DNA of 64,000 nt from Protoeuglena noctilucae (lineage: Eukaryota). The notes under the pieces were generated by a model. That model had not been told where the DNA came from. It searched no databases and saw only the letters and a program-made list of their open reading frames with translations. How positions within the stretch are numbered: the first letter of the stretch is position 1; every line of letters starts with the position of its first letter. The position numbers were made by a program, and so were the translations under genes. The stretch spans positions 62,001-126,000 of the forward strand of contig OY253684.1 in assembly GCA_958009085.1 (NCBI GenBank), written 5' to 3'. Shown here in pieces: positions 1 through 62,945 of the stretch.

Positions 1-2087
1 GGCCTTCGTGCTGCGATGGAGGAGGTGGAGGAGTTGCGTGCGCAGGTGGAGGTGATGGGCAACTACGACCGCACGAGGGGTCAATTAGCAAAGGCCATGG
101 CGGGGATGCAGGCGGAGAACGCCAGGCTCAGGGAGAGGCTCAAAGAGGCCACGGGTGAGTGAAGGGTGGGGGTGGCAGTGGGGGTGGTGTTAGGGGTAGC
201 AGTGGGGGTGGCAGCAAGGGTGGCAGCAAGGGTGGCAGTGGGGGCAGCAGTGAGGGTAGCAGGGGGGGTGGCAGTGAGGGTGGTGTTGAGGGTAGCAGTG
301 AGGGTGGCAGTGAGTGTGAGAGCGCGACTGTTGTGCAAGAGACAGTACCACTCACCGCCCCTCTCCCCGCTCTCCCCCCCCGCAGTGGAGGGTCCCGGTG
401 CTTCCCGCCTGGTCCGCGAGTATCAGATGAACGACCAGCTGCAGCTGCAGCGGAGAGTGGCGCGGGCGGAGGCAGAGGCGGAGGTGCTGCGTCGGCAGAT
501 GGAGCAGTTGCACGAGTGGGCGGCGGCCACGGGGGCCAGGAGCCAGGCGGAGATACGCAGGCTGAGGGCCGTGGTGGGGAGGTGAGAGAGGGAGTGGTGG
601 TGGGGGTGGGGGTGGGGAGGTGAGGGGGAGGAGGGTTGTGGGGGTGGGGAGGTGAGGGGAGGACGGTGTGGGATAGAGTAGAGTGACTACATAGCAATGT
701 GATACGGCATAACTTGCGTCGCCTCTCCATAACTGCACCCGTCTGCGCCCTTGTTAAGCTTATTATCAATCCACCCCACTCGTGTCTTCATATCCAACGC
801 AGATACGAGCCCCAGTCGGTGTCACCACCCCCCGGCATGGAGTTGGCTCTGAGGCGAAAGCCACGCAGTGCGGGGGCACTGGGGCTGGCACCCATTGCAC
901 GCCTGGGCTCTGCGGGGGGGCTTGGGACAGCGGGGAGGGGGTTTGATGTTGCGAGTGGCAGTGGCAGAGGCGGTGGGGGGGTTGTGGAGGGTGAGAGTGG
1001 TGCAACTGCGGTGGGGGGCAAACCCTGGGAGAGGGCGAGGCGTGGGGGTGACGGTGCAGGGACGGACTGGGCGGGGGTGGCGCATGCGGCAGCTGTGGTG
1101 GAGCACACGGGTGGGATGGGACTGATTACGGGGCTCATGAACGATCCGTCTGCTGCGGAGGTGCCGCGAGATCGCATACACAGGGGGGCGGGGGTGGGTG
1201 GGGGGGTGGCAACAGGGGCGGGTGCGGGTGGGGGGGTGGCGCCAGGAGTGGGGGCAGGGGCAGGGGCAGCAGCGGGGGTAGCAGTGGGGTTAGGAATGGG
1301 GGCAGGAACACAGGCAGCCCCTTCTGCAGTGCCTGGTATGGGCCCAGTGGATGGTGTGCCTGGCAGGGGCGGTGGTCGTGGGGTGCGTGGTGGGTCGTCG
1401 CTACGAGCGAGGGACGCTGTGGTGCGGCGGAGGGAGGTGGCGGCCTTGAAAGAGGGGTCTGGGGGTGTGGGGGATGCTAAGAGTGGTGGAGAGGTTGAGC
1501 TTGGGCCTGTGGATGTCGATGCGTTGCTGCGGGCGCCGGTGCTGGCGGGGCCAAGGAGCGAGGAGCGGTCCGCGGGTCGGCTGTTCGGTTTGAATGCGCT
1601 GGGGGAGCCTGAGCCGGAGCTGGCGTTCCTGCCGGGGCTGGCGATGTGGGCGGACGGGCCGGACGGGAAGGGCGGGACGAAGGCACTGCCCGAGACGGTG
1701 TGGAACCAGGTGGGATAGGTGTGGGGGTGGTGGGGATGAGTGTAGAGATGGTAGAGATGATGTGGAACCAGGTGGGGATGTGAGAAGAGACGGTGTGGAA
1801 CCAGGTGGGTGTGGTGGGTGGTAGAGATGGTGTGGGAGCAGGTGGGTTTAGTGGGTGTAGTGCGTGGGGATGGCATGAGCGAGGGTGATGGTATGCGTGG
1901 CACCAGTTAATGTTCACCACTTCATGTCCATTGCGATGCCACTACACACTCATCATGGTCACTCGTGCCTGTGCAGTTCGCCAGGGGCACGTCGATGACC
2001 AACGCAGCCGTGGCGGGGGCAGGCGGGGAAGCAGAGGGCGATGGGGGAGGGGAGGATGAGATTGGAGACGGGATCAACCTGCCTTGA
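1..2087 (+). CDS. Partial gene (5' end outside window): coiled-coil protein of unknown function with a Gly/Ala-rich C-terminal part
   Basis: Exons <1-154, 386-581, 803-1709 and 1977-2087 join in frame across GT-AG introns (ACG G|GTGAGT..CGCAG|TG GAG; AG|GTGAGA..CGCAG|A TAC; CAG|GTGGGA..TGCAG|TTC) and end at TGA 2085-2087. Heptad-like E/R/A/Q-rich segments (MEEVEELRAQVE..., QLQRRVARAEAEAEVLRRQMEQL). Confidence 0.7.
162..312 (+). repeat. Degenerate 12-bp minisatellite (GGGTGGCAGTG-type) in the 5' half of an intron
   Basis: About 12 units of (G/A)GGGT(G/A)GCAG(T/C)(G/A) at a 12-bp period. Related arrays occur at 37940-38050 (reverse complement) and 59935-60116. Confidence 0.85.
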
Positions 2088-2878
2088 TGCACATATGTCG
2101 TGCACATGGTTCATTCGCTCTTCTACTTGCAATTGCAGTCACTGCGCATAGGTTAGCTGAGCCTGCCTTGATGCATATCGCATGGTACACTTGCAAGCGC
2201 ACTGGTACTGGTTGATAGGGCAGAGCTTAAGATGGTGCAGGTTTGTTTGTCTTTTGGCCACATCGGCAGTCTACGTGGCAGTTGCTTGAGTTGCGTGCTT
2301 CGAATTGTGTGCTTCATAGCTCAGGCACTACAGGGCCGCCGCTAGGCATGCCCAGCACTAGACAGGCAAACGAAAAGGACTGGGGATAAGGTCCGCTGTG
2401 GGTGGTGGCTGGTCTGGGCTATACGACAAAGGTAAAGGCAGCGAGGGTTCGTGTGGCAAGGGATGGCGCAAATGTAGCATCGTCAAAGGCGTAACAGACA
2501 GCGATCGCTGAGGGGTCTCTCTGGGCAGTCCTGACGCGGGAAACGGAGAAAGGGCCGGGAAACGGGGCTGTGGCTGCGGCACAGGGGTGTGCGCATGCGT
2601 GCATGCATACACGCATGCCTGCCGCGCTCACATCGCAGTTACGCATGCGTCAGGATGGGGGCCGGCAGGGTCTCACGCACTCGCATCGACCATGCTGCCC
2701 CTCTCTCATGCCCTCTCATGCAGCTGCGCCCTCTATATGACACAGCATCCCCTCTCATACCACAGCACTGTACATGTGCGCGCTCACATGCAGCGCGGCG
2801 CCCCTCCCTCCCTCACACAGCATCCCGTCTGTGTCTCCAGAGACACACCCCGCACATGGGGTTTGCTGTGTGCGACTC

Positions 2879-7832: not shown

Positions 7833-10800
7833 TCACTGCCCCCTGCCCGTCTTGCTGAGGATGACCTGTGCCTCCTCGGATTGCATGAATGCCATGAAGG
7901 CATCCAGGAGGGCCATCTTGCGCTCTTCAGGGGAGGGGTCCCTGGGGGGAGCGAGATGGGGGGGATAAGGGTGAGGTGATGTGGGGGGGGCGATAGGGGT
8001 GGGGGAAGCAAAGCGGCGTGATCGGCATTCAGTCAACGAACTACACAAAGCCTGCAAACCCACACACAGCGCCTGCCCCCAACACCCGACCGCGCCTGAG
8101 GTCCTCCCTTCACCACCCCCACCTCCTCTCCCCCACCTGGTCCCACCCATCATCACGCCGCAGTGCTTCCTCATCCTCATCCTCTCCCCCGCACCCCCCA
8201 CCTGATCTTGCCCCCGTTGGCCGCCGGCGCCGCCTTGCCGCTGGTGCCGATGCAAGTAAACATTGCCTTGTCCGTGAAGTCGAACAGGTCATAGGCGGAG
8301 CCCACGTCGTCCACCGTGCACGTCTCGTACATGGTCACCAGGTCCCTGGGGTTGGGATTATGAGAGAGAGACAGCGTGAGACACATGGTAAGAGAGAGGG
8401 TCGTGTCTCCTACATGGTCACCCCAACATGCGCTCTCCCCAACACCCTACCCCACCCCACTTAACACCCCCTTCCCCTTCACCTGAGGCACTGGGCGCTC
8501 TCATCAACACCCGCTTCACTCCATCCATACATGCCTTCCCTCCCTTCTCAACCCACCTGAGGCACTGGGCGCTCTTCAGCGGCACCGCGTCCGACTGCAG
8601 GTGTGTCATCAGCGACAGCCAGTACCCGTTATCCTTCAAGTCACTCTCGTGTCTTGAAATCAACGTCCTCTTGGCCCGAGCCAGCTCCCGTGGGCTGATG
8701 GGGGAGGTCTTGAAGCCCCGCAGCACGCGAAGGCACGCCTGCAGGGCCGCATCAATCTTGGCGGGCTCGGAGGTGACTGGGGCGGAGTGAGGGGGAGGGG
8801 ATGTGGTAATCAATGGTGATCAGTGGTGAGTGAAGGGTTGTGTTAATTGCAGATGGATCTTCACCCACCCACTTACTTAATACCCACCCCGTCTGCAGCC
8901 GGTCAAACACTGCACATGCCACATGCTATAGACATACTGTAACTATTGCAACTGCACTATTGATATACAACCATTCCCATGCCTCTCACCCGACACGGAG
9001 AACCACCCCGTCTGCAGCCGGTCGAACACGGTGAGGTCGAACGACACATCGTACGTCAGACCCAGGCTGTCACGCACGGTAGTGAACAGCCGCGCGTTGA
9101 TGACCTCGCTCAGCAGCTGCAGGGTGGTGGAGCGGAAAAGGGGGTGGCCGCGGCGCAGGCGGTCGGCCTCCCTGCGCTGATCGGGGGTCATGCCCTCGTA
9201 GGCGTGTTCGGGGGGTGGGGGCGCCACGTCGCCCTTCACGATGCCCACCATGCGGGAGGGGTCCGAGAGGAGATCCGAGGGCTGGGGGGGAGATAAGGGG
9301 GGGGGGGGGGGTGAGTGGTGGGGTGAGGGGAGTGCGATTGGTGTGACAAATAGCGCAGCACAGCGCACGGTGGCATGCGCATCTGCATTGCGCAAGCACA
9401 TCGCCCCATGCGTTCATGCTACCTGCGCCTGTGGCAGAGACACATACACAGTACAGCCTACGTCAAGCACATCCACCCCATCGCCATCGCCCCTCGCCAG
9501 CCACGCCATCGCATGTCAGGCCACATCACACCCCCACCACCCACCACCCCTCCCTCACCAGCTTCCACCGGGGCGGCGCGGGCCCAGCGATGAACGCACA
9601 CGCCCTCTCATCGGAGTCCATCTGATGCCATCGCTGGTGAGCATTGGTGGGCTCGGGTGCGTGGAGCGTGAGGGGGGCCGTGTGGACCCAGCGGGGGAGG
9701 TCGCTGCTGGTGTCGATGGTGCCCAGGTAACGCAGGGCGCAGGCCTGGGGGGGGGAAGGGAGGGGGGTGATGGGGTGTTGTTGTTGTTGTGGGGGCGGCA
9801 GTGGGGGTGGCAGTAGCAGTGAGTGTGGGTGCACACCCACCCACCCACACCCAACCTCAACCCACTCACCTCCACCCTCTCCGGCTCCACGTCCCCCACC
9901 ACCGACACCTCGATGTTGTTGGACTGAAGGATGCGCGACACCACGGACTTGAGCTTGTCTGCACGGATTGAAAGTATCGCGGTGTGAGTGAGATTGTCTG
10001 CCATGGTGGAAATGCATTTGATTCATCTCTCATCCACTCTTCGCTCCCCACATACAATCGTCACCCAGGTCGAGCGCCTTGACGTCCTCACCACGTCACC
10101 ATGTTATACATCCATATAATCATCAAAATTGTCACTAATAACCCATCCTCACCCAGGTCCAGCGCCTCGATGTCCTCGGGCGTGGGGTCCCGGAACCGCC
10201 GGTCGTCTTTGATCATCGCCCCCATGATGCGGTTGGCAGTGGCCCTCTCCAGCGACTTGTCGGTGCTCCGGAAGTGGCTGGCGAACATCTGCTTGGCGCG
10301 GTCGAACGCCACGGGGTCCCACCGGGGGTGGCGCAGGAACTGGTGGAGCAGCTCAAAGGCACCCTCCATGCCGCCGTTCTGTGATAAGAGGGGGGGGAGT
10401 GGTTTGGGGGAATGGATTGTTTACTGAATGGATTGGGAGTGTGTGTGTGTGCGAACCACAGGTCCATGATGACGAGCTCTGTCTCATTTACTTCACTCCA
10501 CCTCTCACATCTATTATACTCTCTCATCTACTCGATACCCCCCTCACCTCCACCGCGAACCGCAGGTCCATGATGACGAACTCCTCGTCGCTGTCGATCA
10601 TGCAGTTGATGAGCTTGCTAATGCAGAAAAGCTCCATCTGCTCCCGCTCCCACGACCCCACCGTCCCGGACTCAGACACCGCGCGCACCCCCACGGCCAC
10701 AGAGCCGTACCCCGCGCCGGGCTCGGTCGGGTCCTCCACACTGCGACCGCCGCCCGCCACCAGCCGAAGCACGGCGCCCTTGGGCTCGTTATCCTGGGTT

Positions 10801-11767
10801 AAGAGGGGAGGGGAGAGGAAGGGTGCGGGTGTGATGGGAGTGGGAGTGTTTGAAATGAAGAGAGAGGGGGGGAGGGTGTGGGTGTGGATGAGAGAGTCAG
10901 CACCGTGCCCTTGGGCTCGTTCCTAGGTGGGGAGGAGAGAGATGGATGAGCTAGGGCATGTGCATCAATGCCCCATTGCCCACCTCCGCCAACCTCACCA
11001 ACACCCCCCCACCACGCCACCACAACCACCACCCCACCCCCTCCCTCACCGACACGCGGTAGTTGAGCCTGACACCGTTGCTGAGCCTCCTCAGCACGAT
11101 GCCCTTGTCATCGGCGGGCGGCGTGGCGTCCGCCCCCGGTCCCACGGGCACGAACTGCGGCCGTCGCTCCTCCACCAATCGTTGCAAGGCCTCTTCCTCC
11201 ACCAGGCTGTCGGGCACGTCGATGTCCTCCTTGGCGGGGATGTTGCCCAGGTCGCGCGCCAGCACCTCCTGTGTGGGAGAAGGGGGTGGGGTGTGTGTGA
11301 GTGGGGTGCATGGGAGGGGCACTGAGGGGGAAGCAGGGAGAGGCTGAGGAGGGAAGCCGGGTGAGATGCATGGTTAATTGTTCCAACATTAACACCCCCA
11401 CCCCCATCTCGCCTGTATCTGCTCCGCCGACAGGTCGAACCGCACGGCCCCCTCGGGCGGCGGCCCCCACTCATCCGCCCCCTCCTCGGACCCAAGCGGA
11501 TCGGTCACCGCATCCACGTCCAGCGCCTGGATGACCGAATCGTCCAAATGCTGACCGGTGGACACCCCCCCGCGCTTCGGGCCACCGCCGCCGCCCCCCA
11601 GCCCCTCCCCGCTCGCGTCCATGTATGCCGGCACGCATGCGATGATCGATGTGGTGCGCGAGGGCTCAGACGACCACGCATCGGGATCTGATTGATACGC
11701 ATGGTCCAGCTGGTCCTCCCGGCCGTAGTAGGCGGCGAAGCTCAGCAGGGACTGGCACACCGCGTTG
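7833..11767 (-). CDS. SPP: Chloroplast stromal processing peptidase (M16 metallopeptidase), C-terminal half only; the 5' part falls in the assembly gap
   Basis: IIACVP, RRLSNGVRLNYR, VRAVSESGTVGSWEREQMELFCISKLINC, AFDRAKQ..KSLERATANRIM, NIEVSVVGD, LRYLGTI, DSDERACAFIAGPAPPRW, EVINARLFTTVRDSLGLTYDVSF, RELARAKRTLISRHESDLKDNGYWLSLMTHLQ. Last exon ends at TGA 7833. At least 10 introns. Confidence 0.9.
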
Positions 11768-11967
11768 NNNNNNNNNNNNNNNNNNNNNNNNNNNNNNNNN
11801 NNNNNNNNNNNNNNNNNNNNNNNNNNNNNNNNNNNNNNNNNNNNNNNNNNNNNNNNNNNNNNNNNNNNNNNNNNNNNNNNNNNNNNNNNNNNNNNNNNNN
11901 NNNNNNNNNNNNNNNNNNNNNNNNNNNNNNNNNNNNNNNNNNNNNNNNNNNNNNNNNNNNNNNNNNN
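11768..11967. other. Assembly gap (200 N, probably a placeholder length)
   Basis: A run of exactly 200 N interrupts the SPP coding sequence. Confidence 0.99.
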
Positions 11968-12341: not shown

Positions 12342-13699
12342 ATGGTGAACGCGGAGGACGTGGACCTTATGGACACGGTGGGCAAGCACTGCTTCGCGTG
12401 CAAGTGCAACGATTTCTTGCCATTCCAGTGCGACGGCTGCAAGCGCTTCTTCTGCGCGGAGCATCGGTGAGCATTGCAGCGATATGAACGCTGCCAACCG
12501 CACGCTGTGACCTGCGTTTCGTCCTCGCTGCGAGCTTATGTGATCCCCACCGCTCCTTGCTTGCAGCGAGTACGGCCACCACGACTGCCCCAGGCCCCAC
12601 GCCAACCGGAACGTCACAGCGTTGGTGTGCAGCAAGTGCGGGGAGGTGAGCTGAGACCGCTTGTCTCGTGGTGCACCGTCGTGACGCGACCCGGCCGTCG
12701 ACCCGCAACCTTCCACCCCTTCCCTCCCCCAGTCCGTCAGAGTGGAGCCGGGGCACGACGCGGACGAGTCGCTGGCTCGCCACGTGGCCGCCTGCACCGA
12801 GGTCCCCCGTGCGCGCGTGCCCCGCTGCCCCGTGCCCGGATGCAAGGAGAAACTCACGGCCGTCTCGAGCTACACATGCGCTTCCTGCCGCACGGTCGTG
12901 TGCATGAAACACCGCTTCGCCGAGGACCACGCCTGCGGCTCCCTCCACACCGTCCCCCAGCCGCGGGGCAAGAGCTTTCGTATCGGCGTGGAAGAGTCCG
13001 CCCCAAGGCACGCCCCAGCGGCCGGCACGGCGCGAGACAACGTGCGCGGTGATGTAGCTGCGACGCCGTCTCCAGCCCCCGCCAAGGCAGTCCCCAGGTG
13101 CGCCGGGTGCCATTTAGGCTGTGTGATCGGGCTGTGCGACTTGGCTTGCATGAGCAATTGACACCCTCTTGGCATCCCTTCCCCCGCAGCGTCCGGGACC
13201 AGGTGCGCCGGGTGTGGCTGCAGCGATTCGAGGAGATGCTCCGCCCCTCGGCACGGGCGGCCTCTCCCACCCGCCCATCGCCAGCACAAGCGGAGCACTT
13301 TGCGACGCCCATGGGGTCCCCCGCCTCCCCGGTGAGCCAATTATCGCTGAGGCTTTCGGCAAGCACTTTGCCTCGACGACCACAGAGTTGCTCCCCACCC
13401 CGCGTGCCAATAACACCGTGCCCCTGCCTCGCCCACCGCAGTCACGCTCCGGACCATCCACGCCACTCGACCCGGAGCTCGCGAATGCGGACCTGTCCAT
13501 GCTCGCGTCCACGAGCCGGGGACCGACCCCGGAGCAGATCCGGGCCTTCTTGCGGGCCCAGGAGCGCGCGCGGCAGCCCAGCAAGCTGCAGCTGCTGGAC
13601 GGCTATGAGGGGTGCCCGTGGTGCGGGCGGTCGTTTGCGGACGCGTCGGAGCTCGTCTGGCACAGCGAACGCTGCTCCCACCGCCCCGTCCAGGCCTAG
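12342..13699 (+). CDS. AN1-type zinc-finger protein (two AN1 fingers plus a C-terminal C2HC finger; ZFAND2/AIRAP or plant SAP11/13-like)
   Basis: VGKHCFACKCNDFLPFQCDGCKRFFCAEHR-EYGHHDC; RCPVPGCKEKLT..YTCASCRTVVCMKHRFAEDHAC; C-terminal CPWCGRSF..LVWHSERC. Four GT-AG introns; TAG at 13697-13699. Confidence 0.88.
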
Positions 13700-40380: not shown

Positions 40381-40966
40381 GCTCACGGGCCGGAACTACC
40401 CGGCGAAAGAGACGGGCGGGCGCGCCCGGCAGCGGGGGGAAAAGGGGGCACGGGGCCAGCCAGCGCTTGATGTTTTCCGAATCTCTTGAAGCTCCTCGCT
40501 GTCGGATGGCGAGCGCTGCTTCAGTCGCACACAAGAATTGTCCACGCGAACTCCGGGGCGCGCAGGCTCGGCCTTGCATGCCGCCAGTCCAGCGTGAGAA
40601 GACGGTGTCACGGCCCTGAGCGCACCTGGCGAGCTGCGGGCACTCCGGCAGCAAGTTGTCCACAACGGAATCCGACGGTGCCTGGTGCGGCAGGTGCACG
40701 CCGTGCCGGAAGCGTTCAGGAGGCATTCTTCGCGCCAAGCAGCGCGAGCTCGCCGATTTGCGGCCTTTTCGGACGGCGTCCGCTGCACTGAGAGCCTGGC
40801 TAAGAATGTCCGCGACTCCGCGGGCGCTTCTCAAGCCTGGCCAGCGCGGCGCCGCGCTCGGGCGACTGCAGGTGCGGGCGCCACAAGGCCTCTCCCCCGC
40901 CCAGCGCCTCGCCTGCCGCGCGGGGCGGCGGCGGCGCAAGCGCGCTGTGTAACTGGATAGCTTCGG

Positions 40967-43913: not shown

Positions 43914-43949
<36 letters not shown>

Positions 43950-46233
43950 GTGAGTGGGGGAGGGAGTGAGGGTGTGAGAGAGTGACACAGAGAGTGAGTG
44001 AGTGACAGAGATGCGAGACACCAACACCATGCCGCAGTGGGCGGGGTCGTGCTGGGTGAGTGGGCTGATGACTGGTGCAGCTAACACTATGCTTGTAACA
44101 GCGCAGTGCTCCCTCCTCCGCTACACATCTCCCCTCCCATCCATCACTCTCAGCGCCACCCCTCTTCTCCCATCCCAGTACTACCTCCGCTACATCTCCC
44201 CGTCTTTCTCCCCCGCCCTCGTCGACCCAGCTGCTGAGCGCTACTGGATGCCCGTGGACCTCTACGTGGGGGGAGCTGAGCACGCCGTGCTGCACCTCCT
44301 CTACGCCCGATTCTGGCACAAGTTCCTTTTCGATATTGGGGCCGTGTCGACGCCGGAGCCGTTCCAAAGGCTCGTGTCGCAGGGGATGATCCTGGGGGAG
44401 GTGGAGTATGCGGGGGCGAAGACGGAGGGGGGGGAGTGGGTGTCAGGTGAGGGGGGTGGGTGTATGGGTGGTGGGGTGGTGTGGGAGTGGGTGTCGGGTG
44501 AGGGGGGGTGGTGGGGTGTGGGTAGGGGAGTGGTGGGTGGTGAGTGAGGGTTTTGTTGAGGAGTGGAATGGAGTGGTTGCTCGGGTGGCAGTGATACCGA
44601 TGTTGCGATGTGCGGGTAATGTGCATTGGTGAGAACAATGTAGCATACAACCACCAGTCCCCCCCCACCCTCCCCTTCCCGCAGCCGACGACCCCCGCGC
44701 ATCTCTCTCCACCTCTACTTGGGTGAAGCTGGATCCCCAAGACGTGGAACGAAGCGGGGACGCTTACGTGCTACGCTCCGACCCATCGGTGCGCGTCACA
44801 GCGCGTGCCCACAAGATGTCCAAATCCCGCGGCAACGTGATCAATCCCGACGACGTGGTGTCCGAGTTCGGTGCCGACTCGCTGCGGCTGTATGAGATGT
44901 TCATGGGGCCGCTGCGGGACACGAAGGTGTGGAGTACGCGGGGGGTGGAGGGCGTGCATCGATTCCTGGGGAGGGCGTGGAGACTCTTGGAGGGGGGGGT
45001 GGGGGAGGAGGAGCCGAGCAAGGAGCAGATGAGGTGAGGGGGGGGGGAGGTGGGGGTGGGGGGGTGCATGGGTGGGGGCAAATGAAGTGAAGGGGTGGAG
45101 TTGGGGAGGTGCGTGGATGAGAGCGGATGGGGTGAGAGGATGGTGGGGCTGGAGGATGTAGGCGGCTGTCGGGAGGTCACTGGTGACCGTCGCGGTGACT
45201 ATCAATAGCAGCAAATGTCGCAGTCAATCAGTAATTGACTCCCTTAGTAACTCTCACACACAGCGACTGTCCTAGTGACTGACCATCGCAGTGACAGACT
45301 GATAGCCTCACACGCATGTCACCTCCCCACGCAGGGACCTGCACGCGTGCATCAAGAAGGTGACGGAGGAGACGGAGGAGATGCGATTCAACACGGCGAT
45401 ATCCGCCATGATGGAGTTCGTGAATGCCGCCACCAAATGGACCAACCGGCCACGAATGGCACTCGAGCCGTTCGTGCTGCTGCTCAGGCGAGAGATGTTG
45501 GGGTGGGGAGGGGGGAGGGGGGTTGCAAGTAGCGAGGGGTGTTGTTGTGGTAGCGGTGGTGGTGTTGTGGTAACGGGGAACGAGGCTGCAGTTGGCAGTT
45601 GTAGTTATGTGAGGGAACAGAGCAGTTGACCATTCCGTCATGGATACGCACACGCCTCGTTCCGACAACATCAACACACTGGCATGTTTGCCCCCCCGCA
45701 GTCCCTACGCCCCCCACGTGGCGGAGGAGCTCTGGGAGCGGCTGGGACACCAACAGTCGCTGGCTTATGAGCCCTGGCCCGCGTTCGACCCCTCGCTGCT
45801 GCAGCAGGACACAGTCACGCTGGCCGTGCAAGTGGGCGGGAAGGTGAGGGGTGTCAGGGGTGGCTAGCGAGAAAAGAAAAAAGGTGAGGGCAAGAGTGGA
45901 TGAGGTGAGCGGGTTATGAGGGCAAGAGTGGGTGACGAGGTGAGCGGGGTATGAGGGTGAAAGTGGGTGATGAGGTGGTGTTGGGTCTGCTCACGATTGG
46001 GTCAGCTGCGGCAAGCGGCGGTGCTTCTACGACCATGTGTTTGCTGACGGGGCCCGCGTGCCGTCACTTGCCCGCAGATGAGGGGCACGGTGGAGCTGGC
46101 GGTGGGGGCGGGGGAGGCGGAGGCGATGGAGGCGGCGCTCGCGGGGCCGGCTGCCAAGTGGGTGGAGGGCAAGGCGGTGAAGAAAGTCATTTACGTGCCG
46201 GGGAAGATCCTCAACATCATCGTGGGCAAGTGA
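40967..46233 (+). CDS. Leucine--tRNA ligase, organellar (bacterial-type, chloroplast/mitochondrial); exact start uncertain
   Basis: [34 protein letters not shown] (HIGH), [117 protein letters not shown] transit-peptide-like exon lies at 41209-41340; ATG 40967 is a guess. Confidence 0.96.
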
Positions 46234-47859: not shown

Positions 47860-50800
47860 TCAGCCCCCCACCGCCGCCCGCACCACCGCTGCAGCGTCCC
47901 TCAGCCCCGCGTGCCAGGGCAGGGCATGGGCTGACTGGGCCTGCGAGACAAGACAGATGAGTGAAGTTGCTTTATCGCATAACTGTTGCTATCATCTGCT
48001 GTCATCTGTGCATCACGCCCACCGCCATCACCAACCCCAGCACTGCCACTACCAGCCATGCCACCCGCATCACCCACCCACACCCACCCATCCCCATCCT
48101 CACCAGCGCCACCGCCGCCGCCCCCATCGCCCCCTCTCCCAGCTCCCCCACCCCCGCCGCCCCCGCCAATGCCAGCAGATGCCTCACATCCCCATTCAAA
48201 TCATCCCCACGCGCCGCCCCAGGCTCAAACGCAGCGATTGTTGCACCACTGCTCACGTCCACCCACGCCGCCCCCGCCCCCGGTGTCCCGCAAACACGTG
48301 GGGTGGTCATGGCAGCCGCCACACCGGCCCCGCCACCCCCCCGCAGCGCAGGGCTCAGTTTCGCGACCCTCCCGCCCACTGCCGCCGCCAGCACCCGCGA
48401 TCGCTCCGACCAGGGGGCGATGTGCACGGCCGCTCCCGCATGCACCCTCGCGCGCACTGCAGCTGCGCTCGTCACAGCATCCCCCGCCCCCGCCGCTCTC
48501 GCCGCCGCCGCGTGGCTCGCCGCGAGGGTTGCGTGGCTCCGCACCCGCACCCGCATGGCTGCATCCCCCCCCGCTTTGGCTGCAAACGCCTCCGCACACT
48601 CCACCACCATCGCATGCCTGTCCTCCGCCTCTCGCAGACTCTCTGGCTGCCCTGCCGCCCCCGCTTGTGCCAAAAACGCAGCTTTTGCATCGTTAGGCAA
48701 CGCCGCAGCTGCCACCCGCAACGCACAGGCAGCGAGGAGGCAGTCAAAGCACCGCGCCACACCCGCACTCCACTGCGCATGGGCTGACGCTGAATGGGCG
48801 TCGATAGCAGGGGTGCCATGGGTAGCAGTGGTGGTGGAAGATCCATGATGGGTGTAAATGTTTGTGCTTGTATTTGCAGTGCTGTCCGTGTCTGGCTGTC
48901 GATAGGATGCGTCGATGGTGACTGCGATGGCATCGTCGATGCGCGATGCGGCGCAGAGGGCGGTGACGAGGGCAGAAGCCAGATGGGCGGAGTCGGGTTG
49001 GCCTGGGGGGAACAGGGGAATGGGGGGAGAGTGAGGGGGTGAATGAGTAGGTGAGGGTTGGGTGGGCAGAGTGGGTGGACAGCAGAGTGACACGCCACAC
49101 ACCAATTACACCCGCCCATCACATACACACACCATTTAGATATACACATGAACACACGCCTCCCGCCCCACCCCCCACCCCTCACCTCTCCCCTCCGCCG
49201 CCCCCACCGCCACCCGCAGCATCCCCGCCGCCCCTGCCGCATCGCCCTTGGCCGCCACCACGCACGCCGCGCCCGCCATGGCCCAGGAATCCCCCGCCTT
49301 CTGCATTTCCAGATTCTCATACAGCATCCCCGCCTCCTCCAGCTTGCCCATTCTGGCGAGCACGCGTGCCAGACTGACGCGCACCGCGGCTGACACCGCG
49401 TCAGGGTCTGACGTGGGGCCGCGGTCGGACGGGACCTGAGTTGGGGAAGGGAGTTTGAATTTGAATGTGAATTTGCATGCCAGAAGAGTGGGAGAGGTGG
49501 GGGGAGGATGACAGTGAGCATCAGTAGTAGCATCAGTAGCATCACTAGACTAGGGACAGTTGCAACGGTAGCCATGCCACCCCTTACAACCACCCGCTTT
49601 CACACCCGTCACCATCACCACCACCCCGCCCCACCCATCCCTCCACCGTGACCGTCACCCCCCCCTGGTCGCCCCCACCACCACCACCACCCCTCACCCC
49701 TCACTTTCAAAATAACCACTATCCAACTCCCTTACACCCCCCCCCTCCCCATCCCTCACCGTGACCGTCACCCCCCCCCGGGTCGCCCCCACCATCGCGT
49801 GTGCTTTGGACAGACTGACCAGCGCCCCCTCCATCAGCCCCCTCGCTTCCCTCGCCAGTCCCAGCGCGTGGTGAGCCGCTGCGTTCCAAGGCTCAAGCTC
49901 TGCCCATCTTGATGCGGTGGGGAGGAGGAGGGGGTGGGTGGCGTGGCCAAGGGAGAGGGCGCACGTGGCGGCGTAGTGGAGGGCCTGGGGGGGTGGGAGG
50001 AATTGATAATGTGATTTTACAATGCAGTGTGAATATACACTATTATAGAGCGCTGGTGTATGAGAGCGAGAGTGCGCAGGTGCTGGCGTAGTGGAGGGCC
50101 TGGGGGGGTGGGAGGGATTGATAGTGTAATTATATAATGTGAATGTACATTTACTATATAGCATGGGTGTATGAGAGGGGGTGGGTGGCATGGCCAAGTG
50201 ATAGTGATAGTGATAGTGATAGTGATAGTGATAGTGATAGTGATAGTGATAATGATAGAAATAGTAAATGTAAAAGTAATAGTAATAGTAATAGTAAAAG
50301 GAATAGTAATAGTTAAAGTAATAGTAATAGTAATAGTAATAGTAATAGTAATAGTAATAGTAATAGTAATAGTAATAGTAATAGTTATAGTAATAGTAAT
50401 AGTAATAGTAATAGTAATAGTAATAGCAATAGTAATACAGTGCTGCACTCGCAACCGTTCCCGCCACCCTCACCACTCTCACCCATACACACCCCCCACC
50501 CACCCATTCCACTCACCTCCGTCCCGCACACCATACCCAGCGCGTGCCGGGCGAACTCAAACGCCCCCCTCACATCCCCCGCCCCCGCCGCCATCCCCGC
50601 CATCGCCTCCCACACCCCCGCATAATCGGGATCCTGAGCCCGCGCCTGCTGCCAGCATCTTTCTGCCAGATTAGTCTGTTGCATATTCGCGTATAATCGG
50701 CCCAACGCCGTCCACGCCCCCGCATTGCCAGGATCCAATTGCAGTGCTCTGGACAGCGCATATTCCCTTTCAGGTGGGGTGGTAAGAACGCTGCTCAGGG

Positions 50801-53800: not shown

Positions 53801-56800
53801 GTCACGTCACTCCCCAAACCCCCCTCAGGTGCCACCAGCTTGGCTGTCAGCTCCATACCCGCTGCAGCGCGCGCCAAGCCGGGCAGGAGAGTGGGAGCGG
53901 ATGCAATTCCATGTGCGTTGGGTGACAACCCTATCGCCAGCCCACCAGCACCGTCATTGTTATCGGCACCACCCCCAGTCACCGCCTCCCCACTGCCCGC
54001 ACCAGCGCTGCTGTGGTTATTGTTACCATCGGCACCGGTCACGCCATCACCAGTAATAACGTTGTTACTAACACTGTTACTAGTATAATTACTGTTGTCA
54101 CGGCCAGCGCTGCTCGTGCCACCACCCCCACCCCCACCCGCACCCGCACCCCCACTACCACCCTCCCCCCCCCCATTCAGCGCATTCACTCCGTTCCTGC
54201 TGAACGGCTCTTGCGTGGCGTCGGCGATCAGCACCTGTGCCGCGATCAGCGACAGCAGAGTGGGGGCGTCGTGGCAGACTTGCTGGGCCTCCCGGACGGC
54301 CGCGGCGTGGCTGGGGGGGTGGGAGAATAGTGGGGTTTATGAGAGTTGCTTATAATTTACTAGCACAGTTCCTCGCTGGGCCTCGTGGACGGCCGCGGGG
54401 TGGCTGGGGGTGGGGAGAGAGGATATGGGTTAATGAGGGTGATGAAGGTTGATGATAAGACTAGCACGCTTGCTTGCTGGGCCTCGTTCAACTGTCATGC
54501 CTGCACCCTCAACCTCCCCACCCACGCGTGCAGGACCCCTCATCATCACCCACTCATGCACCACAACTCACCTCTGCAGCGCTATCAACGCCCGCGCTTT
54601 CACCACCCTCGCCGTGGCCGCATCGACCCTGCAGGCCCACGGCAGCTGGGAGGGAACGCGTGAATCCCGGGCCAGTTTCTCTGACTTGTCGCGCACCATC
54701 TCCACGGACATCTGAGACGATTTGATGGCATCGTGGAAGCGGCCGGACTGGGGGGGGGGGGTGGGTTAGATGGGGTGGGACCGGGTGGTGGGGTTGAAAA
54801 AGATGGTTACGCTCAGTCAGCAACAAAAATATGGAGATAGCTTTGTCATCAGTCACCCAATGCAAGTGGGTCCGAACGCGACACCCCCACAGCACGTTCC
54901 TAATATCGTGCCCCCCACTACACACCCACTGTCCACGCACCTGCGTCGCCGCCATCACTGCAGCACAACATGACCTACATTGTATACAATGCCCCCCTAC
55001 CACCCACGCACCTGCATGGCCGCGGCTGCTGCCGCGAACTTCTTGCTGATTTGAAACTTCTCGTCCGCCCCCCTCCCCTGCAGCAGATCCTCTGCTTTGC
55101 TGATCAGGCGGGGGCGGTCGATGGGGTCGGCGGCCATGGCGACGAGCGTGCCCAGCAGCGCGGTGCCCAGGGCGTGCTGAGAGTGAGAAGGGTGAGGGGA
55201 TAAGGTGAGTGAGTGGAGTGGAGTGGGGTGTGTGGGTGTGGGCCGCAACCACTGCTATACACACTGCAATACACAGCTGCCACTACAACAGCACGTCATC
55301 GCCGGCCCATTTGCCGCCTGTGAGGGGGTGGTTTACATCGTCGAGAAGGTCCTCAGATTCACTCACCCTATCTTGCAGCTGCCACTACACACCACCATGC
55401 ATGCCATACATAGTATACTCACCCTGGCCTGCAGCTGCCACGGCGTGGCGTGCGCGGCGTGCGCTGCGACGCGGCACACGTCCGGAGACCACGCGCAGGG
55501 CAGCAGGGCGTCTGCGCTGTCGAGCGCGGCCATCAGCAGCGCCCTGTTCACTGTGCCCGTCGATCGCAGCACGCCCACGCACCAGTCGAGGCAGCGGAGG
55601 TGGCCGGGGGGGCCCTGGGGTCCAAAGAGAGGGGAAGAAGGGAGGTGAGAGGGGCGATGTGTTGAAAGAGGAGGGGTGTGGGTGGCAGTGCTTTGAACTG
55701 GGTGTGCGTGATGATTGCTCTTCTGTAGGATTCACTGGGTGAATGCTCTTCATTAACCATCGAGGGTTCATGTACCATCCACGATCAACCCTCTCACCAT
55801 GCTCTTCTGCAGGTCGATCATCGTGTTCATGTATCGCTGCGATTCGGGCGACAAATCGTCCACGCACGCGCGCTCCAAAAGGCCACACGCCTGCGACTGA
55901 CGGTCCTGCTTAGCGGTGCCGTCCCGCAAATCCCGATAGCTGTTGACGGCCCACTCGTACACCTTGGCGCGGATGCGACGGCTGCGGTGCGGCCGGAGAG
56001 ATATATGGCGGTTCCTCTTTGCTAGCAGGCAAGCGCGAGCGTGTGTGACCGAAACGCGATCTTCGACGCCTCGCATTCGCCGATCGAGTTCTTTATGCAA
56101 TAATTGTTATCACAGTGCTTATAGCTCCCCGCAAAGACCCTCGCCTGAGGTCGTCGCCGACCCATCCCCCCGTCCGGTCCAACACGTCCGCCAGCACCCG
56201 CGCCGCCGCGATGTCGCCCTCCTGCCGCCCCGCGTGGTCCTCGTGCGCTCTGCAGAATTTCTCCAGCTCCTCGCCGACCCTCGCGGGGTCGTTGCCGTGC
56301 GACGCGAGGCTCAGGAGCTCCTGCAACGCATCGTGCTCCACGCTCGCGCCGGTTGCGCAGGCGCGCAGAGCCACCGGACATTAAGATGACACATTCGACA
56401 CATTACTCACACCGTCTATGATAATCTCTTACCGCGGAGACCTCCATGTAAGCCTGGAAGTCGCCGCACGCCTGCGACACGATCGCCAGCCCCCGCATGG
56501 CGTCGGGCCGCGTGGGCTCGAGCTGAATCGCGCGGCGCAGCACCCTCATGGCTTCTGGAAACTCCCCGCAATCGCAGTGGACCCGGCCCAAGAGCAGCAA
56601 CGCGTGGTAGTGCTGCGAGGGAGGGGACAGTCCAGGCACGCTCTGCGCGACCCGCCGGCCCGGAGAGGTCGCGTAAAGTGCATCACAAGCAAGAATACAT
56701 GACGAATATGCGATCGGGCAGGCATAACAGGCGCGGGATCCGGTCGCGCACCCGGGGGTCTGCCTGGAGCGCAGTCCTGCAGTGGAGGACGCACGCGGAC

Positions 56801-58648: not shown

Positions 58649-58747
58649 TGTCTTGGTCATCATACAATGACAGTACCATGGCGAATGCTGCGGCGATGTG
58701 AATGGTCGACGCGCTATTCAATATCATCATGGTATGTACGTGACTCT

Positions 58748-61700
58748 TCAATCGAGCTGGTCCATCCATGCATCATCCTCATCCCCCTCATCTTCACTCC
58801 CCCCATCACCATCCCCACCAACCCCACCACCCATGCCGCCCCCACTCCCCAACGCAAAGCCCATCGACCCAGCAAGCGACCCCGCGGGCCCGGGCATTCC
58901 CATCTGCGCCTCATAGCTCGCCAACAGACCACGCAGTGCCCCCACATCCACATCCACCGGCCCCTCACCACCACCGCTATTGGTGACACCACTACCACCA
59001 CCACCACTCTTAACTCCCTTAGCCCCCTTCACGTCGCTTTTCCTCAATTCTGTCTCCATCGCTTCATCATAGGCCTCTCGAAAAGCAATGTCCAGATCTG
59101 TTGACCCCACACCCACGCCGCCCTGGTTACCCACCACCCCCGCACGCCCCCGCCTCATCCCTGCCACCCCCACTTCGCCCTCGCTCTCACTGTCCCCATC
59201 CTCTGATGAACCATCGCTCCCACTTATCCCACCCTCACTGCCGCCCTCACTGCTACCCTCGCTGCCATCCCCACCGCTACCCACCGACGCCCCCACCTCC
59301 TCCCCCAGCGCCGCCGCCAACTCTCGCAGAAATCCGTCCGCATCCAAACCCACGGGTCCCACCCCCCCAGGCACCTCGGCCCCTTCTGGCCCTGAATCAG
59401 CTGCCAGAAAACGACCCATGCCCTCCAGGAGGGCGCCCAGGTCCAAAGACGAGGACTGCGGGTGAGGATATATCTATATATAGATATATATTGATACTAT
59501 GTATAATATGTATAATGTGTTGTGAGTTATGTATGTGTGTCTGTGGTTATAAATCTCGACGAAATATAACAATGGCAAACCACGTTATGATTTGAATACC
59601 CCAACACGCTGCCCACCCCTCACCTCCGCCCCCTCCCCGCCCCTCTCTCCCCCCCCACCCCTCCCCCCCGCCGACTCCGCCATCTCTTTTTGTCTCATTC
59701 CCATTTCCGCATCCAACAGCGCACCCCCCTCCTCCATCCACTCCTCCCCATCCACCGACCCCTCTTCCATCGCTGCATCGTTGGAATACTCCATTGGCGT
59801 GTCATTTGAATTATCCATGGATGCTTTCTCGAATGACGCGATGATCTCCTCGATGCGGCGGCCGGGGGCAGAGGCGCGCTCTTGCATGGCCCGGTGAGCC
59901 TGCGGGGAAAGTGAGGGTGGAGGTGGTGTTGATAAGGGTGGCAGTTAAGGTTGGGGTGGGGGTGGCAGTGGGGGTGGTGTTAAGGGTGGTGTTAAGGGTG
60001 GTGTTAAGGGTGGCAGTGGGGGTGGGGGTGAGTGTGTAAATAAGGGTGGCAGTGGGGGTGGCAGTTGGGGTGGTGTTGAGGGTGGCAGTGGGGGTGGGTG
60101 TAGGGGTGGCAGTGAGAGCAGCATTGCAAGAGGTTGACTAAGTGCCACTGCTTAACACCCCACCCAATTATCGCCCCATCTCCACCCCACCCCCATTCAC
60201 CTCTGTGCTCTCATATGCCTCCCTCGCCCTCCTCTCCCTCTCCCGGTACTCCACCGACCCCTCCACCAGTCCCAGGTAATACCCCGCCCTCGTCAGCGAC
60301 GCTTGAAACCGCCCCCACCCACCACTGCTCCCACCGCCACTCATACCAACCCCCCTCTTTTCCCCACCCCCACCGCCACCCCCACTGCCACCTCCACTGC
60401 CACCCCCACGGTCACCCCCACTCCCCTCCATTTTCTGACTTCTCTGGCACAGCATCTCCAGCCCCATGGTCAATTTGAATCCCAACTCTACCGCGCGACG
60501 ATCGGGGTCGCCCAATGCTGGCATGGGCACGCGTGCCTGTTTGGGCGGGTGGAGTATCTGCTGGGATAGTTGCGCGTAGAGGAATCTCGTGAAATGGATG
60601 ACGGCGGGGACGGGGGCGGTGGCGGTGTAGGGGAAGTGGGGGAGGGACGAGGAGGCGCGGAGCTCTTGGGGGTCTCTGGGGGTGGGGTGGGGAAGGGGGT
60701 GAGGAGATGAGATGAGATGAGATGAGGTTAGATGAGATGAAATGAAATGATATATGAGGCGAAATGAGCAAGTGCTAGGTTTGAATAATGCTTGAGTGTC
60801 AATGCTGGGGTCTTTGGTTGGGGTGGAGTGAGCGTTGTTGCATGGGTGGGCATGGGACGCTGGGTGTCATGGCATCTTGCCATTAATAACCATTCGATTC
60901 TCACATATATTAATTCGTTTCTAATAGCAAGTATCCTCACCTCATGCACACTGCTTCGACGGCAGGCGCGACGAGCTGTGGGTCCTGGCGGAGGATGCGG
61001 GCCACCAAAGGGGGGACGAGGCAGCGGGCGCGGTGGAGGGAATGGGAGGCGATCTGTGATGAGGGAAGGAGTGGGGTTGGTGGGTGAGTGAGAGTGGGTG
61101 GCGATGTAAGGTAAGTGAGAGTGGGTGAGGGGATAGTGGGGCGATGTGAGAGGAGGGGACGAGGCAGCAGGTGCGGTGGAGGGACTGGGAGGCGATCTGA
61201 GGGGAGAGAGAGGGGGGTGGGTGGGTAAAGTGTGGGTGGGTGGGTGAGAGAGAGACAATGAGATGAGAGAAGAGGGGTGAGGGGTGAGGGGAGCGTGGCC
61301 GAGGGTGGCGGTGAGGGCGGGAGTGGCAGAGAGACCAAACTAGCCAAGTGCGTCATATTGATGCTCACAATGCGCATCTATTCCAATCCGTACCTCACCC
61401 GCAGCATCCACTCACAACCACTCCACCACTCCACCCTCACCCTGGGCACCTCCCCCATGCATTCATTGAGTGTTCATTGTTCACTGATACCACCACTCCG
61501 CCCCTCACCCGTGGCACCTCCCCCAGTCTCCTCTGCAGCATTGCCTGCGCCTCGTCGGGCAGTCGCGTGAGCACAGATGCCGACTGCACTGCGCCCAGGC
61601 ACTGGGACAGGCTGGGGCGGGGGGGGAGCTGCGGGACAGGGTGGGGAGGGAGAGGGTGAGAGTTAGTTAGTGAGTGTGGACTGCTGCAAAGAAAAAAGCT

Positions 61701-62945
61701 TTACGCCATTCGCTACTCACATTTACACACATGAACCACCCTACGTTGATTGCCATACAATCACCCTCCGCACCTCTTTTGCCACCTTGGCTGGTGGCAC
61801 CACACCACATGCTATCCTCTCCTTTATACAATAAACACACATGCTATCCTCTTCCCAACTAGTACTACACACCAACACTCTCATCTCACCTCTCTCGCCA
61901 CCTTGGCCGGCGGCACCACATGCGCCTCTCCGTTATACACAAACACGCGCCCCTCGGCTGTCTCCGGCTGCACCCACTTGGGCAAAGCAAAGGCGGACTC
62001 GATCAGAAGGAACTCCCCGTCGTTGTCGAACACGCGGGCCACGGAGCCGGGGACGCGAACGGTCACTTGGAACTAAGGGGGAATGGGGAGGGATAGTCAG
62101 TGATTGGGTATGGCGAAGGGTCACTTGGAACTAAGGGGGAAGGGCGGGAGGGAGTTAGTGCGCGTGAGAGGGGGTGACGATATGAGCGCACGGGTGAGGG
62201 AATGCTGAGCGATGGTTGGTGGCACCGCACATTGGGAGTTGTCAGGGAGGGAGGTGAGAGTGTGCGTTGGAAATGCAGCAAACGCTACCATTACTCTCTC
62301 TCTGCTGCCCCCCATCTATGCTACACTGCGCTCACCAGCACATACGTGGCCAGCCAGTCGTCCTCGACGTTGTCGCCGAACTGCATCGTGCCCCAGAGGT
62401 GCGGGACATCGCCGGCGCCCCTGCAGACGCGAAGAGAGCGCAGCTGGCGAGACAAAAGGCCTTGCACAAGCGTCTCACAGCCAAGCGTGCACGCCGCGAG
62501 GCATCTCCGGCATCAACGACGTCGCGATGTTACATTATTTACATAATGCTACAAATACATCGCTCACCGGCCGTCCGGAGCGTCGATCGGGGACGGGGAG
62601 TCGGTGCTGCGGCGCAGAGCGAAGGGATCCCGCTGCCATATGTAGCCCCGCGCGACCTCCGCCAGGACCGTCATCGCCTCCACCTCCAGGGACGCGAGAG
62701 ACGATTCCGCATCCTGGCCTGGGGACGCAGACGAGCGAGGTTGATCCGGCAACGCGCTTGTGAGCAGTTCTCCGGCGGCGGAGAGACGCGTCCGCGAATC
62801 TGATGTCACACATGTGTACTCTACGAATATAAGCAAACGCTGCGTCGCCCCATGTCTCACCGGGCGCGGGGAAGAGGAAGAACGTCGCCGCGTTGGCGTC
62901 ATGCTCGAGGTCGTCCAGCCCGAGCAGCTCGCGGACGCCGGCCAT
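58748..62945 (-). CDS. ECD: Ecdysoneless (ECD; SGT1 domain) protein
   Basis: YIWQRDPFAL; LWGTMQFGDNVEDDWLATYVL; VFDNDGEFLLIESAFALPKWVQPETAEGRVFVYNGEAHVVP; LRQDPQLVAPAVEA; ELGFKLTMGLEML; WGRFQASLTRAGYY..EGSVEY; YDEAMETEL; PVDVDVGALRGLLASYEAQMGMPGPAGSL. Confidence 0.92.
59935..60116 (+). repeat. Degenerate 12-bp minisatellite (AGGGTGGCAGTG / AGGGTGGTGTTA), intronic
   Basis: 12-bp period visible across the 3' half of an ECD intron; same family as 162-312. Confidence 0.85.

Follow-up and report, generated by a model that had tools for sequence, protein, structure and literature searches.

Copies of exon–intron borders inside their own introns in a 64-kb stretch of Protoeuglena noctilucae DNA

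Introduction

Why would an intron carry, a short way inside, a second copy of its own exon border, and which of the two copies is then used in splicing? This question is raised by a stretch of 64,000 nucleotides (nt) from Protoeuglena noctilucae (contig OY253684.1, positions 62,001 to 126,000), hereafter referred to as the window, to which all counts and rates below refer. An initial annotation of this DNA had described direct repeats that copy an exon end or exon start into the adjoining intron. We call these structures echoes, i.e., same-strand copies of an exon end or start inside the adjoining intron, usually together with 3–11 nt of intron. The repeat at the border is referred to as the original and the inner repeat as the copy, which are names of position and imply no age order of the repeats or of the spacer between them. 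How introns are gained and lengthened is a long-standing open question, and recent events that can still be read are rare.

Results

Border and strand specificity of the echoes

Fifteen introns of the window were fixed by RNA contig joints or pieces (three of these being GC–AG introns), and a small dynamic-programming gene finder was trained on these RNA-fixed introns, with strands being settled by exon score. The intron set consisted of 91 introns derived automatically and four added ones (supported by the finder or by RNA and lost in the filter), i.e., 95 introns. In this set, 20 echoes (13 at donors and 7 at acceptors) were found in 17 introns of six genes, i.e., in roughly every sixth intron. 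Over all 95 introns, 22 alignments scored at least 14, of which two G-runs (573/611 and 44989/45046) were excluded as low complexity. The repeats measured 18–48 nt (median 28.5) at 88–100% identity, with three perfect copies, and were direct in every case, with the copy lying 51–143 nt (median 94) from the original and deeper in the same intron. Most of the initial description is thereby borne out, i.e., about 20 repeats at donors as well as acceptors, ranging from perfect to decayed, with copies mostly 50–150 bp away; the seven genes to which it assigned them are six. The 11 pairs that it listed have exactly the identities that were counted by eye (22/22, 26/27, 26/29, 27/29, 21/23, 31/31, 38/41, 47/48, 24/25, 42/45, and 23/23).

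The echo-bearing introns belong to an M16 (stromal-processing-type) peptidase gene (5 of 9 introns), a long TPR protein gene (5/15), an SGT1/ecdysoneless-like protein gene (3/7), an organellar leucyl-tRNA synthetase (LeuRS) gene (2/11), an actin-related protein gene (1/7), and a gene at 1–2 kb (1/4). In 13 other gene regions none of the 42 introns carried an echo, and the term "window-wide" used at first is an overstatement.

Exact direct runs of at least 18 nt at offsets of 25–400 occurred 56 times in the window. Ten of these were of normal complexity, and seven of the ten were junction echoes, while 20 shuffles of the window (within 100-nt blocks) yielded no such run at all. When 45 nt of exon plus 10 nt of intron were locally aligned to their own intron in the automatic set of 91 introns, a score of at least 16 was reached by 11/91 donors and 3/91 acceptors (14/182 in total), and a score of at least 14 by 14/91 donors and 4/91 acceptors. 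Non-cognate pairs of junction and intron, a comparison that the initial annotation had called for, scored at least 16 in only 3 of 17,860 cases. Exon segments situated 55–110 nt from the border scored at least 14 in 1/91 cases on the donor side and 0/91 on the acceptor side, and inverted copies scoring at least 14 were found at 0/91 donors and 0/91 acceptors. The analysis confirms that the echoes are real and far above chance, and the underlying process is border-specific and one-strand-specific in the window.

Tandem duplication as frequent in mid-intron DNA as at borders had been named beforehand as a scenario that would reduce the echoes to part of a general process, and this scenario fails in the window. 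Among 281 non-overlapping intron-internal tiles, 16 had a repeat scoring at least 16, and these consisted of 6-mer or 12-mer arrays, two adjacent tandem duplications (of 35 and 39 nt), or echoes that had been copied once more; none of the 281 contained a spaced repeat that was both independent and of normal complexity.

The single match of an exon segment was a 42-nt direct repeat (22366–22407/22561–22602, 37/42), the members of which lie 195 nt (65 codons) apart. It was rejected as an exon-internal echo on account of its synonymous or conservative differences (RTIVTGYG[A/T]V[E/D]ANA) and its G-rich reading frame, and it looks like a protein-level coding repeat.

Echoes consist of repeat, spacer, and repeat

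In all 20 echoes the repeat spans only 20–65% of the offset, and what comes after the second copy bears no resemblance to the spacer, not even at the 31/31 and 47/48 repeats. Echoes are repeat–spacer–repeat structures and not tandem duplications. Simple tandem duplication or a minisatellite was rejected on the lengths in all 20 (repeats of 18–48 nt vs. offsets of 51–143 nt), and a tandem duplication with a diverged second spacer was rejected by eye, given that the 47/48 and 31/31 repeats adjoin unrelated flanks.

The position of the repeat relative to the junction is narrowly defined on the intron side. In 11 of the 13 donor echoes the inner repeat edge is situated at +3 to +10, the other two repeats stopping 7 and 13 nt before the junction. 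The corresponding range is –3 to –11 in 5 of the 7 acceptor echoes, one of the others reaching –40 and one beginning at +6. The exon-side edge is variable, from 12 to 42 nt. Copies of donor flanks lie 36–124 nt from the intron start and copies of acceptor flanks 40–146 nt from the intron end.

The spacers are of low complexity. Those on the donor side are rich in G, T, and A and almost free of C (with none in the 76 nt of 49681–49756), and those on the acceptor side are rich in C, T, and A and almost free of G. This composition mirrors the general gradient of the introns, as G declines from 53% in the first tenth of the 95 introns to 18% in the last (sense strand), with C increasing from 13% to 48%. 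Searching the window for further copies of the spacers, in either orientation, revealed only low-complexity matches of 13–21 nt. Three loci are small arrays with related spacers, i.e., introns 1710–1976 (four copies), 49985–50516, and 54311–54571.

The copy at 10057–10089 retains two states (GTC and CTC) in common with an intronless ortholog, the live exon having changed since. Copies thus appear to be fossils of earlier exon states that decay as neutral DNA. Introns with echoes have a median length of 256 nt vs. 164.5 nt for the others, i.e., they are about 90 nt longer, and the median drops to 168 nt after subtraction of the offsets, which fits intron growth. Of the initial proposal that introns grow by junction-spanning duplication, the greater length agrees with the data, and the tandem duplication does not, the spacer being single-copy.

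Echoes in six genes

In the M16 peptidase gene (7837–11766, minus strand), the donor echo of intron 8346–8556 is perfect (8554–8575/8480–8501, 22/22, offset 74), with an original of 19 nt of exon plus GTG and an exon end that is backed by the intronless ortholog. The acceptor side of this intron has a weak echo (8322–8339/8405–8422, 17/18, offset 83, score 15), the original of which is exon-internal, 6–24 nt inside the exon. Two donor-side echoes are without a splice site: 9003–9029/8884–8910 of intron 8777–8989 (26/27, offset 119) stops 13 nt short of the donor (exon end 8990/8991), and 10555–10583/10451–10479 of intron 10379–10547 (27/29) stops 7 nt short of it, its copy being followed by (AC)6. 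Intron 9959–10152 carries a donor echo (10145–10177/10057–10089, 29/33, offset 88; 25 nt of exon and 8 nt of intron in the original), and intron 10794–11049 an acceptor echo (10768–10790/10899–10921, 21/23, offset 131), the match of which extends across the AG when an indel of 2–3 nt is allowed. The early remark that copies usually include the GT or AG stands for most echoes; it does not apply to 9003–9029 and 10555–10583, which lack the GT, or to 8322–8339, which starts inside the exon.

Both ends of intron 39231–39483 in the actin-related protein gene (37699–40395, minus strand) are echoed. The acceptor echo (39199–39239/39302–39342, 38/41, offset 103) has an original of 9 nt of intron and 32 nt of exon, and the donor echo (39476–39506/39408–39438, 31/31, offset 68) one of 23 nt of exon plus GTGAGTGG, with a (TGG)-like array as spacer. 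The LeuRS gene (40743–46225, plus strand) has a donor echo in intron 43950–44178 (43911–43958/44017–44064, 47/48, offset 106), the original comprising 39 nt of exon and 9 nt of intron, and a G-rich one in intron 44447–44684 (44432–44456/44483–44507, 24/25, offset 51).

The TPR protein gene (48–57.6 kb, minus strand) contains a donor echo in intron 49436–49759 (49750–49794/49636–49680, 43/46 with two 1-nt gaps, offset 114, at a junction from the gene finder). At the acceptor of intron 49985–50516 there is an array (49928..50198) with a unit of about 115 nt, in which the original 49950–50024 (40 nt of intron and 35 nt of exon) and the copy 50065–50139 are 87% identical over 75 nt and an additional exon-derived copy occurs at 50175–50198. 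A second acceptor array, in intron 54311–54571 (54282..54487, minus strand), consists of 54282–54317/54375–54410 (33/36, offset 93) and a third partial unit about 100 nt deeper (about 54460–54487), with mutually related spacers. Further minus-strand donor echoes were found in intron 54748–55011 (55004–55023/54933–54952, 18/20, offset 71; weak, with a score of 14) and in intron 55177–55422 (55417–55441/55361–55385, 22/25, offset 56).

In the SGT1-like gene (about 59.3–63.3 kb, minus strand), intron 61054–61508 is again echoed at both ends, i.e., at its acceptor by 61012–61056/61155–61199 (42/45, offset 143; 3 nt of intron and 42 nt of exon in the original, with exon 60940–61050 being matched by homologs) and at its donor by 61502–61525/61434–61457 (22/24, offset 68). 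Intron 61629–61889 has a donor echo (61887–61920/61771–61804, 30/34, offset 116, minus strand), and intron 62073–62335 an acceptor echo (62055–62083/62113–62141, 28/29, offset 58) with 11 nt of intron and 18 nt of exon in the original. Finally, the gene at 1–2 kb carries a multi-copy donor echo (1692..1846, plus strand) in the predicted intron 1710–1976, the junction of which comes from the gene finder only; its original 1692–1714 (18 nt of exon plus GTGGG) is copied at 1761–1776, 1787–1809 (23/23), and 1819–1846.

Both copies of two echoes are present in independent DNA, and an outer donor is joined in RNA

Contigs of run X5, an independent marine metagenome, cover 38059–39435 and 39487–44434 with 0 differences and span both copies of 2 of the 20 echoes, i.e., the acceptor echo 39199/39302 and the donor echo 43911/44017. 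The mis-assembly or haplotype stacking about which the initial annotation had been cautious is not seen at these two. Public contigs end at the perfect 31-mer 39408/39476, as would be expected of a true repeat.

The outer donor at 43950 is joined in RNA (43948>44178) in three metatranscriptome runs of one study (X9, X10, and X12), the RNA evidence consisting of assembled contigs, which drop rare forms. For intron 39231–39483, the RNA joint is absent from the joints listed, and we infer it from a 1564-nt contig with both flanking exons and from the conserved protein across the border. The best homolog of the M16 peptidase (P0001, 81% identity) is encoded by one uninterrupted reading frame on a related metagenome contig (L001), and the exons of the window, as delimited by the outer sites, map end to end onto it. 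In the SGT1-like gene, the residues of the homolog are contiguous across 62336|62072. Judged by these alignments, the outer sites restore the protein in both genes, in line with the original claim that only the outermost site preserves it. Of the two fates first proposed for inner decoys, neglect or use in nested steps, the RNA joint at 43950 supports neglect.

The inner copies would often qualify as splice sites, a GT being in register at the inner donor of 10 of 13 echoes and an AG at the inner acceptor of 5 of 7. Since 17 of the 20 offsets are not multiples of three, use of an inner site would mostly lead to a frameshift. Modulo three, the offsets leave 2 in 12 cases, 1 in 5, and 0 in 3, which is a weak excess. 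In the two youngest donor decoys (39408–39438 and 44017–44064), an 11-nt core is identical to the real site, and the flanks differ: after the outer donor, G makes up 47–53% and C 3–5%, vs. 25–28% and 17–23%, respectively, after the inner one. On the acceptor side, the G-poor spacer could supply its own branch point and AG-free run. These compositions suggest that splice-site choice may be decided by context beyond the core motif. That decoys with a match of 31 nt (39408–39438) or 47/48 (44017–44064) are apparently unused is a puzzle for splicing, the G-rich, C-poor stretch after the outer site being the only difference visible, and their neglect points to context rules for splice-site choice in short GC-rich introns.

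The gene finder turned three echo copies into false micro-exons (44038–44055, 8877–8909, and 54377–54403), the last of which, with 27 nt, is in frame and would add a nine-residue near-repeat. As echoes mislead gene finders in this way, automatic annotations of this genome may hold similar errors, and false micro-exons are a practical consequence for its annotation.

The M16 ortholog (L001:3922–7266) is intronless, and the gene in the window has at least nine introns in the shared part; the neighboring AN1 zinc-finger protein gene also looks intronless on L001. The contrast reflects either massive lineage-specific gain here or loss in the relative.

Gene content, gene models, and other repeats

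The window has a guanine-plus-cytosine (GC) content of 55–78% and is gene-dense, with many short introns per gene. Runs labelled with a single organism, as well as marine metagenomes, contain it nearly completely, and marine metatranscriptomes include about one third of its words. By its protein matches it belongs to the green lineage, with no close named relative, and a LeuRS exon is too highly conserved for any finer placement. Besides the echo-bearing genes and the AN1 gene next to that of the M16 peptidase, a hybrid-cluster protein gene and a PIG-L-like deacetylase gene were named from the draft annotation.

The gene models are drafts. Junctions are independently supported in the M16, actin-related, LeuRS, and SGT1-like genes, and come from our own gene finder alone in the gene at 1–2 kb and the TPR gene. 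A homolog search with the latter gave no match, and three strings from loose ends of RNA contigs, sought in the window to lengthen its model, were all absent (0 of 3); they probably stem from other organisms in the metatranscriptomes. A gap of 200 N (11768–11967) cuts the M16 peptidase gene, and residues 1–421 of the ortholog are without a counterpart in the window, so that the gap must conceal well over 1.2 kb.

Introns of the GC–AG type are common (3/15 of the RNA-supported and 16/91 of the predicted introns, e.g., 38904–39063, 43109–43284, and 45488–45701), with donors that read GCGAGGGG or GCGAGAGA. In LeuRS intron 41723–41997, RNA contigs of runs X9 and X10 match up to 41907, at a 39-nt tandem repeat, and then run on for 255 letters that are absent from the stretch.

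G-rich minisatellites with a 12-nt period (GGGGGTGGCAGT and AAGGGTGGTGTT types) recur in introns of different genes (132–323, 37955–38026, 38610–38693, 59910–60137, and 60321–60419). Three of these introns are 74–80% identical over 54–76 nt in sense orientation, which is the sole similarity found between introns, and go-back joints of X5 DNA contigs at the minisatellites suggest copy-number variation. An AT-rich hexamer microsatellite (AGTAAT/AGTGAT units on the plus strand) occupies 50172–50469, inside a TPR intron of 532 nt, and an X5 DNA contig joint (49695>50864), the shorter side of which has only 22 letters, omits 1168 nt.

The 16-mer CCAGGTGCGCCGGGTG occurs perfectly at 13094–13109, across the donor of intron 13098–13189, and again at 13199–13214, 10 nt inside the next exon, in a geometry unlike that of the echoes and resembling that of duplication-born introns. 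An origin as a relic of such an intron appears doubtful, as the alternative acceptor would break the frame conserved in the ortholog.

Discussion

With moderate confidence, we regard the echoes as non-functional, DNA-level by-products of error-prone repair or replication restart at both intron ends. A break or stall would arise within the first or last few bases of the intron, immediately behind the donor consensus or ahead of the acceptor, and its healing would write a border-spanning sequence of 18–48 nt a second time, 51–143 nt deeper in the intron. Between the two copies there would be a unique spacer of low complexity, with much G and little C at donors and the opposite at acceptors. Spacer and repeat might both be added, by fill-in of a staggered break or by end joining that depends on synthesis; or a templated insertion of the polymerase-theta type might put only the exon-derived copy into an existing tract. 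The first of these variants would fit the drop of the median length of echo introns from 256 to 168 nt after subtraction of the offsets, and the second is favored by the two copies without a junction and by the conserved codons within the "spacer" 10480–10554. In either case, the spliceosome would keep using the outer site, leaving the mRNA unchanged and the intron longer, and the allele would survive; once two copies were present, misalignment between them could build small arrays.

In this scenario, the origin by break repair, the placing of breaks at the ends of introns, and the neutrality of the copies are inferred. The anchored inner edges of the repeats, their border specificity, the arrays with related spacers, the greater length of echo introns, and the use of outer sites speak for it. 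As in end-joining scars, a direct duplication is separated by unrelated filler, with spacers that are unique in the window. The only related locus found, L001, has no intron at the echo sites. With regard to polymerase theta, a direct template is present nearby, inverted copies number 0/182, and any microhomology is inseparable from the repeat. Identities of 88–100%, together with ancestral exon states in a copy, would fit neutral decay. A precedent from a marine green alga may be seen, by analogy, in DNA integration into Ostreococcus tauri, for which PMC8002553 describes 55–83 bp fillers of unknown origin and a direct target duplication of 518 bp.

Several points weigh against this repair scenario. 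The data hold no direct trace of any break, and no echo-free allele was found by which the inserted piece could be identified. Uniform repair would mostly hit intron interiors, which forces the extra assumption that breaks fall within about 10 nt of the borders, and templated end joining normally also gives inverted copies, so that their absence (0/182) has to be ascribed to counter-selection of hairpins. With a median of 8 nt, the share of intron in the repeat exceeds the usual length of a microhomology. The restriction of the echoes to six genes, with 0/42 introns elsewhere, does not follow from the scenario, and the difference in intron length is confounded by longer introns having more room. 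As to what might cluster breaks at borders, one may guess at co-transcriptional events, the edges of nucleosomes, and R-loops or G-quadruplexes formed where introns begin with G-rich sequence; the border targeting of the duplication is interesting and is not explained by the present results.

Other origins were weighed against the same data. If echoes were short mobile or retro-copied inserts (introner-like, or the tail of a 5′-truncated retroelement) with long, variable target-site duplications, the spacer would be the insert and the repeat the duplicated target. Variable and long target duplications are typical of target-primed reverse transcription; the repeat–spacer–repeat geometry would follow from an insert and its target duplication, and many introns are absent from the 81%-identical ortholog, as expected with active intron-generating elements. 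Such inserts nevertheless seem unlikely, as the spacers have neither a common sequence nor common termini and none recurs in the window, an all-against-all blastn of the 95 introns gave no family except the 12-nt minisatellite, and terminal inverted complementarity is not evident. Moreover, two repeats stop short of the junction, the "spacer" 10480–10554 cannot be an insert in view of its conserved codons, and introner target duplications as described in PMC9860276 measure 3–9 bp and flank the whole intron. Production of echoes through RNA or by the splicing machinery, with border-spanning RNA or breaks at spliceosomes or stalled polymerases being copied back, would account for the strict border and strand specificity (borders only, sense only), and the concentration of echoes in some genes also speaks for it. 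The spliceosome covers a stretch of exon in a size range comparable to the 12–42 nt of exon within the repeats. We still rate this route as quite unlikely: with 3–11 nt of intron in the repeat, the source is not spliced mRNA, we know of no RNA species with such ends, and no signature of reverse transcription (a tail or a truncation series) was seen.

We likewise give little credence to inner copies being selected as decoy or helper sites that recruit U1/U2AF, as steps of recursive splicing, or as alternative micro-exons. The inner GT (10/13) and AG (5/7) in register, the sense orientation throughout, and the in-frame 27-nt exon that 54377–54403 would form could be taken to support a function. 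Against this stand the continuous decay from 100% to 88%, three copies without a splice site, the variable positions and lengths, the 78 of 95 introns without any echo, the frameshift that inner use would cause at 17 of 20 offsets, and the RNA contigs, which at 43950 show only the outer joint (contigs dropping rare forms). That echoes are just the visible part of ubiquitous tandem duplication and minisatellite turnover, with survivorship and exon complexity highlighting the borders, is very unlikely. Introns are indeed full of tandem arrays (with periods of 6, 12, 30, 35, and 39 nt), and three echo loci are themselves small arrays; yet intron-internal repeats are adjacent rather than spaced (0/281 tiles vs. 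14/182 junction queries), exon segments 55–110 nt from the border are not copied (the 1/182 being the coding repeat), and the spacer is not duplicated in echoes. Least credible of all is an assembly artefact through haplotype stacking or polishing errors: despite the 200-N gap and the short-read contigs that break at the perfect 31-mer, X5 contigs span both copies of 2 of the 20 echoes with 0 differences.

It is conceivable, though rather doubtful, that a mutational process is aimed at exon–intron borders themselves, with co-transcriptional splicing, R-loops, or an RNA template directing breaks or template switches. The re-copying of its own borders would then let an intron grow and might also give rise to introns, which would constitute a new mechanistic link from splicing to heritable change of gene structure. 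It would, in addition, continuously supply intact decoy splice sites and micro-exons.

For the question of intron gain and growth, the 64 kb of the window offer about 20 events that are dated by identities between 100% and 88%, in genes the introns of which are altogether absent from a close relative. The process is directly testable by population data, mutation accumulation, and RNA-seq.

Comparison with known systems

A search of the full texts of papers found no description of border copies inside the same end of the same intron, in agreement with the initial annotation, whose author knew of nothing comparable at this density. We class the echoes as a new form of duplication-driven intron evolution. 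Polymerase-theta end joining copies tens of bases from within about 150 nt of a break, sometimes as stutter-like filler, and in this nearby templating it resembles the echoes. It gives direct as well as inverted copies, however, and has no reason to prefer borders, in contrast to the echoes with their 0 inverted copies and strict border anchoring.

Short direct repeats flanking new introns in Daphnia (Li et al. 2009) were reportedly ascribed to double-strand-break repair. A survey of direct repeats at intron borders likewise reads them as repair scars (PMC11782384), which is the interpretation favored here for echoes. Repeats of this kind are 4–30 bp long (11 on average) and connect the 5′ and 3′ borders, whereas in echoes the partner of a border is found in the interior of the same intron. 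RNA joints in the window share 1–6 nt at both intron ends, which is indistinguishable from the AG|G consensus.

Introners are said to be transposon-derived introns with target-site duplications (Huff et al. 2016). They are treated in PMC9860276 and also in PMC3879977 and PMC4540971, and Micromonas genes have 0.6–0.9 introns each according to PMC4540971, which makes Micromonas an unlikely source of the window. Like the introns studied here, introners (PMC9860276) are lineage-specific, occur in a marine alga, and come with a target duplication that supplies or accompanies splice sites. Their duplications of 3–9 bp stand at the two intron ends and the elements form sequence families, whereas echoes have duplicates of 18–48 nt at one end and show neither a family nor terminal inverted repeats in the 95 introns. 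An introner family in the window was rejected, the eight blastn hits being the 12-nt minisatellite, one C-rich 50-nt match, and self-overlap. A fold-back or terminal-inverted-repeat structure of introns is not supported either, complementarity between 5′ and 3′ halves being no better than in non-cognate pairs (a score of at least 14 in 2/95 introns vs. 0.5% of non-cognate pairs).

In the Rogers model of intron gain and sliding, for which PMC2891723 gives Drosophila cases, a tandem duplication spans a proto-splice site. As with echoes, the duplication is local and includes splice-site sequence, one of two equivalent sites is chosen, the mRNA is preserved, and the intron lengthens by the duplicated length. 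In that model, however, the upstream exon end recurs at the 3′ end of the intron and the downstream exon start at its 5′ end, with a repeat as long as the offset, whereas the donor-flank copy of an echo lies 36–124 nt inside the same end of an existing intron, behind a unique spacer, with a repeat of 20–65% of the offset. A Rogers-type origin was rejected, donor-flank copies never being situated at the intron 3′ end.

The Ostreococcus tauri scars (PMC8002553) share with the echoes a marine green alga as host, the repeat–insert–repeat order, a filler of tens of bases, and a direct target duplication. Those scars are rare, were induced experimentally or arose singly, lie at arbitrary sites, and have large inserts, whereas the 20 echoes are small, occur within 64 kb, and are all anchored at borders.

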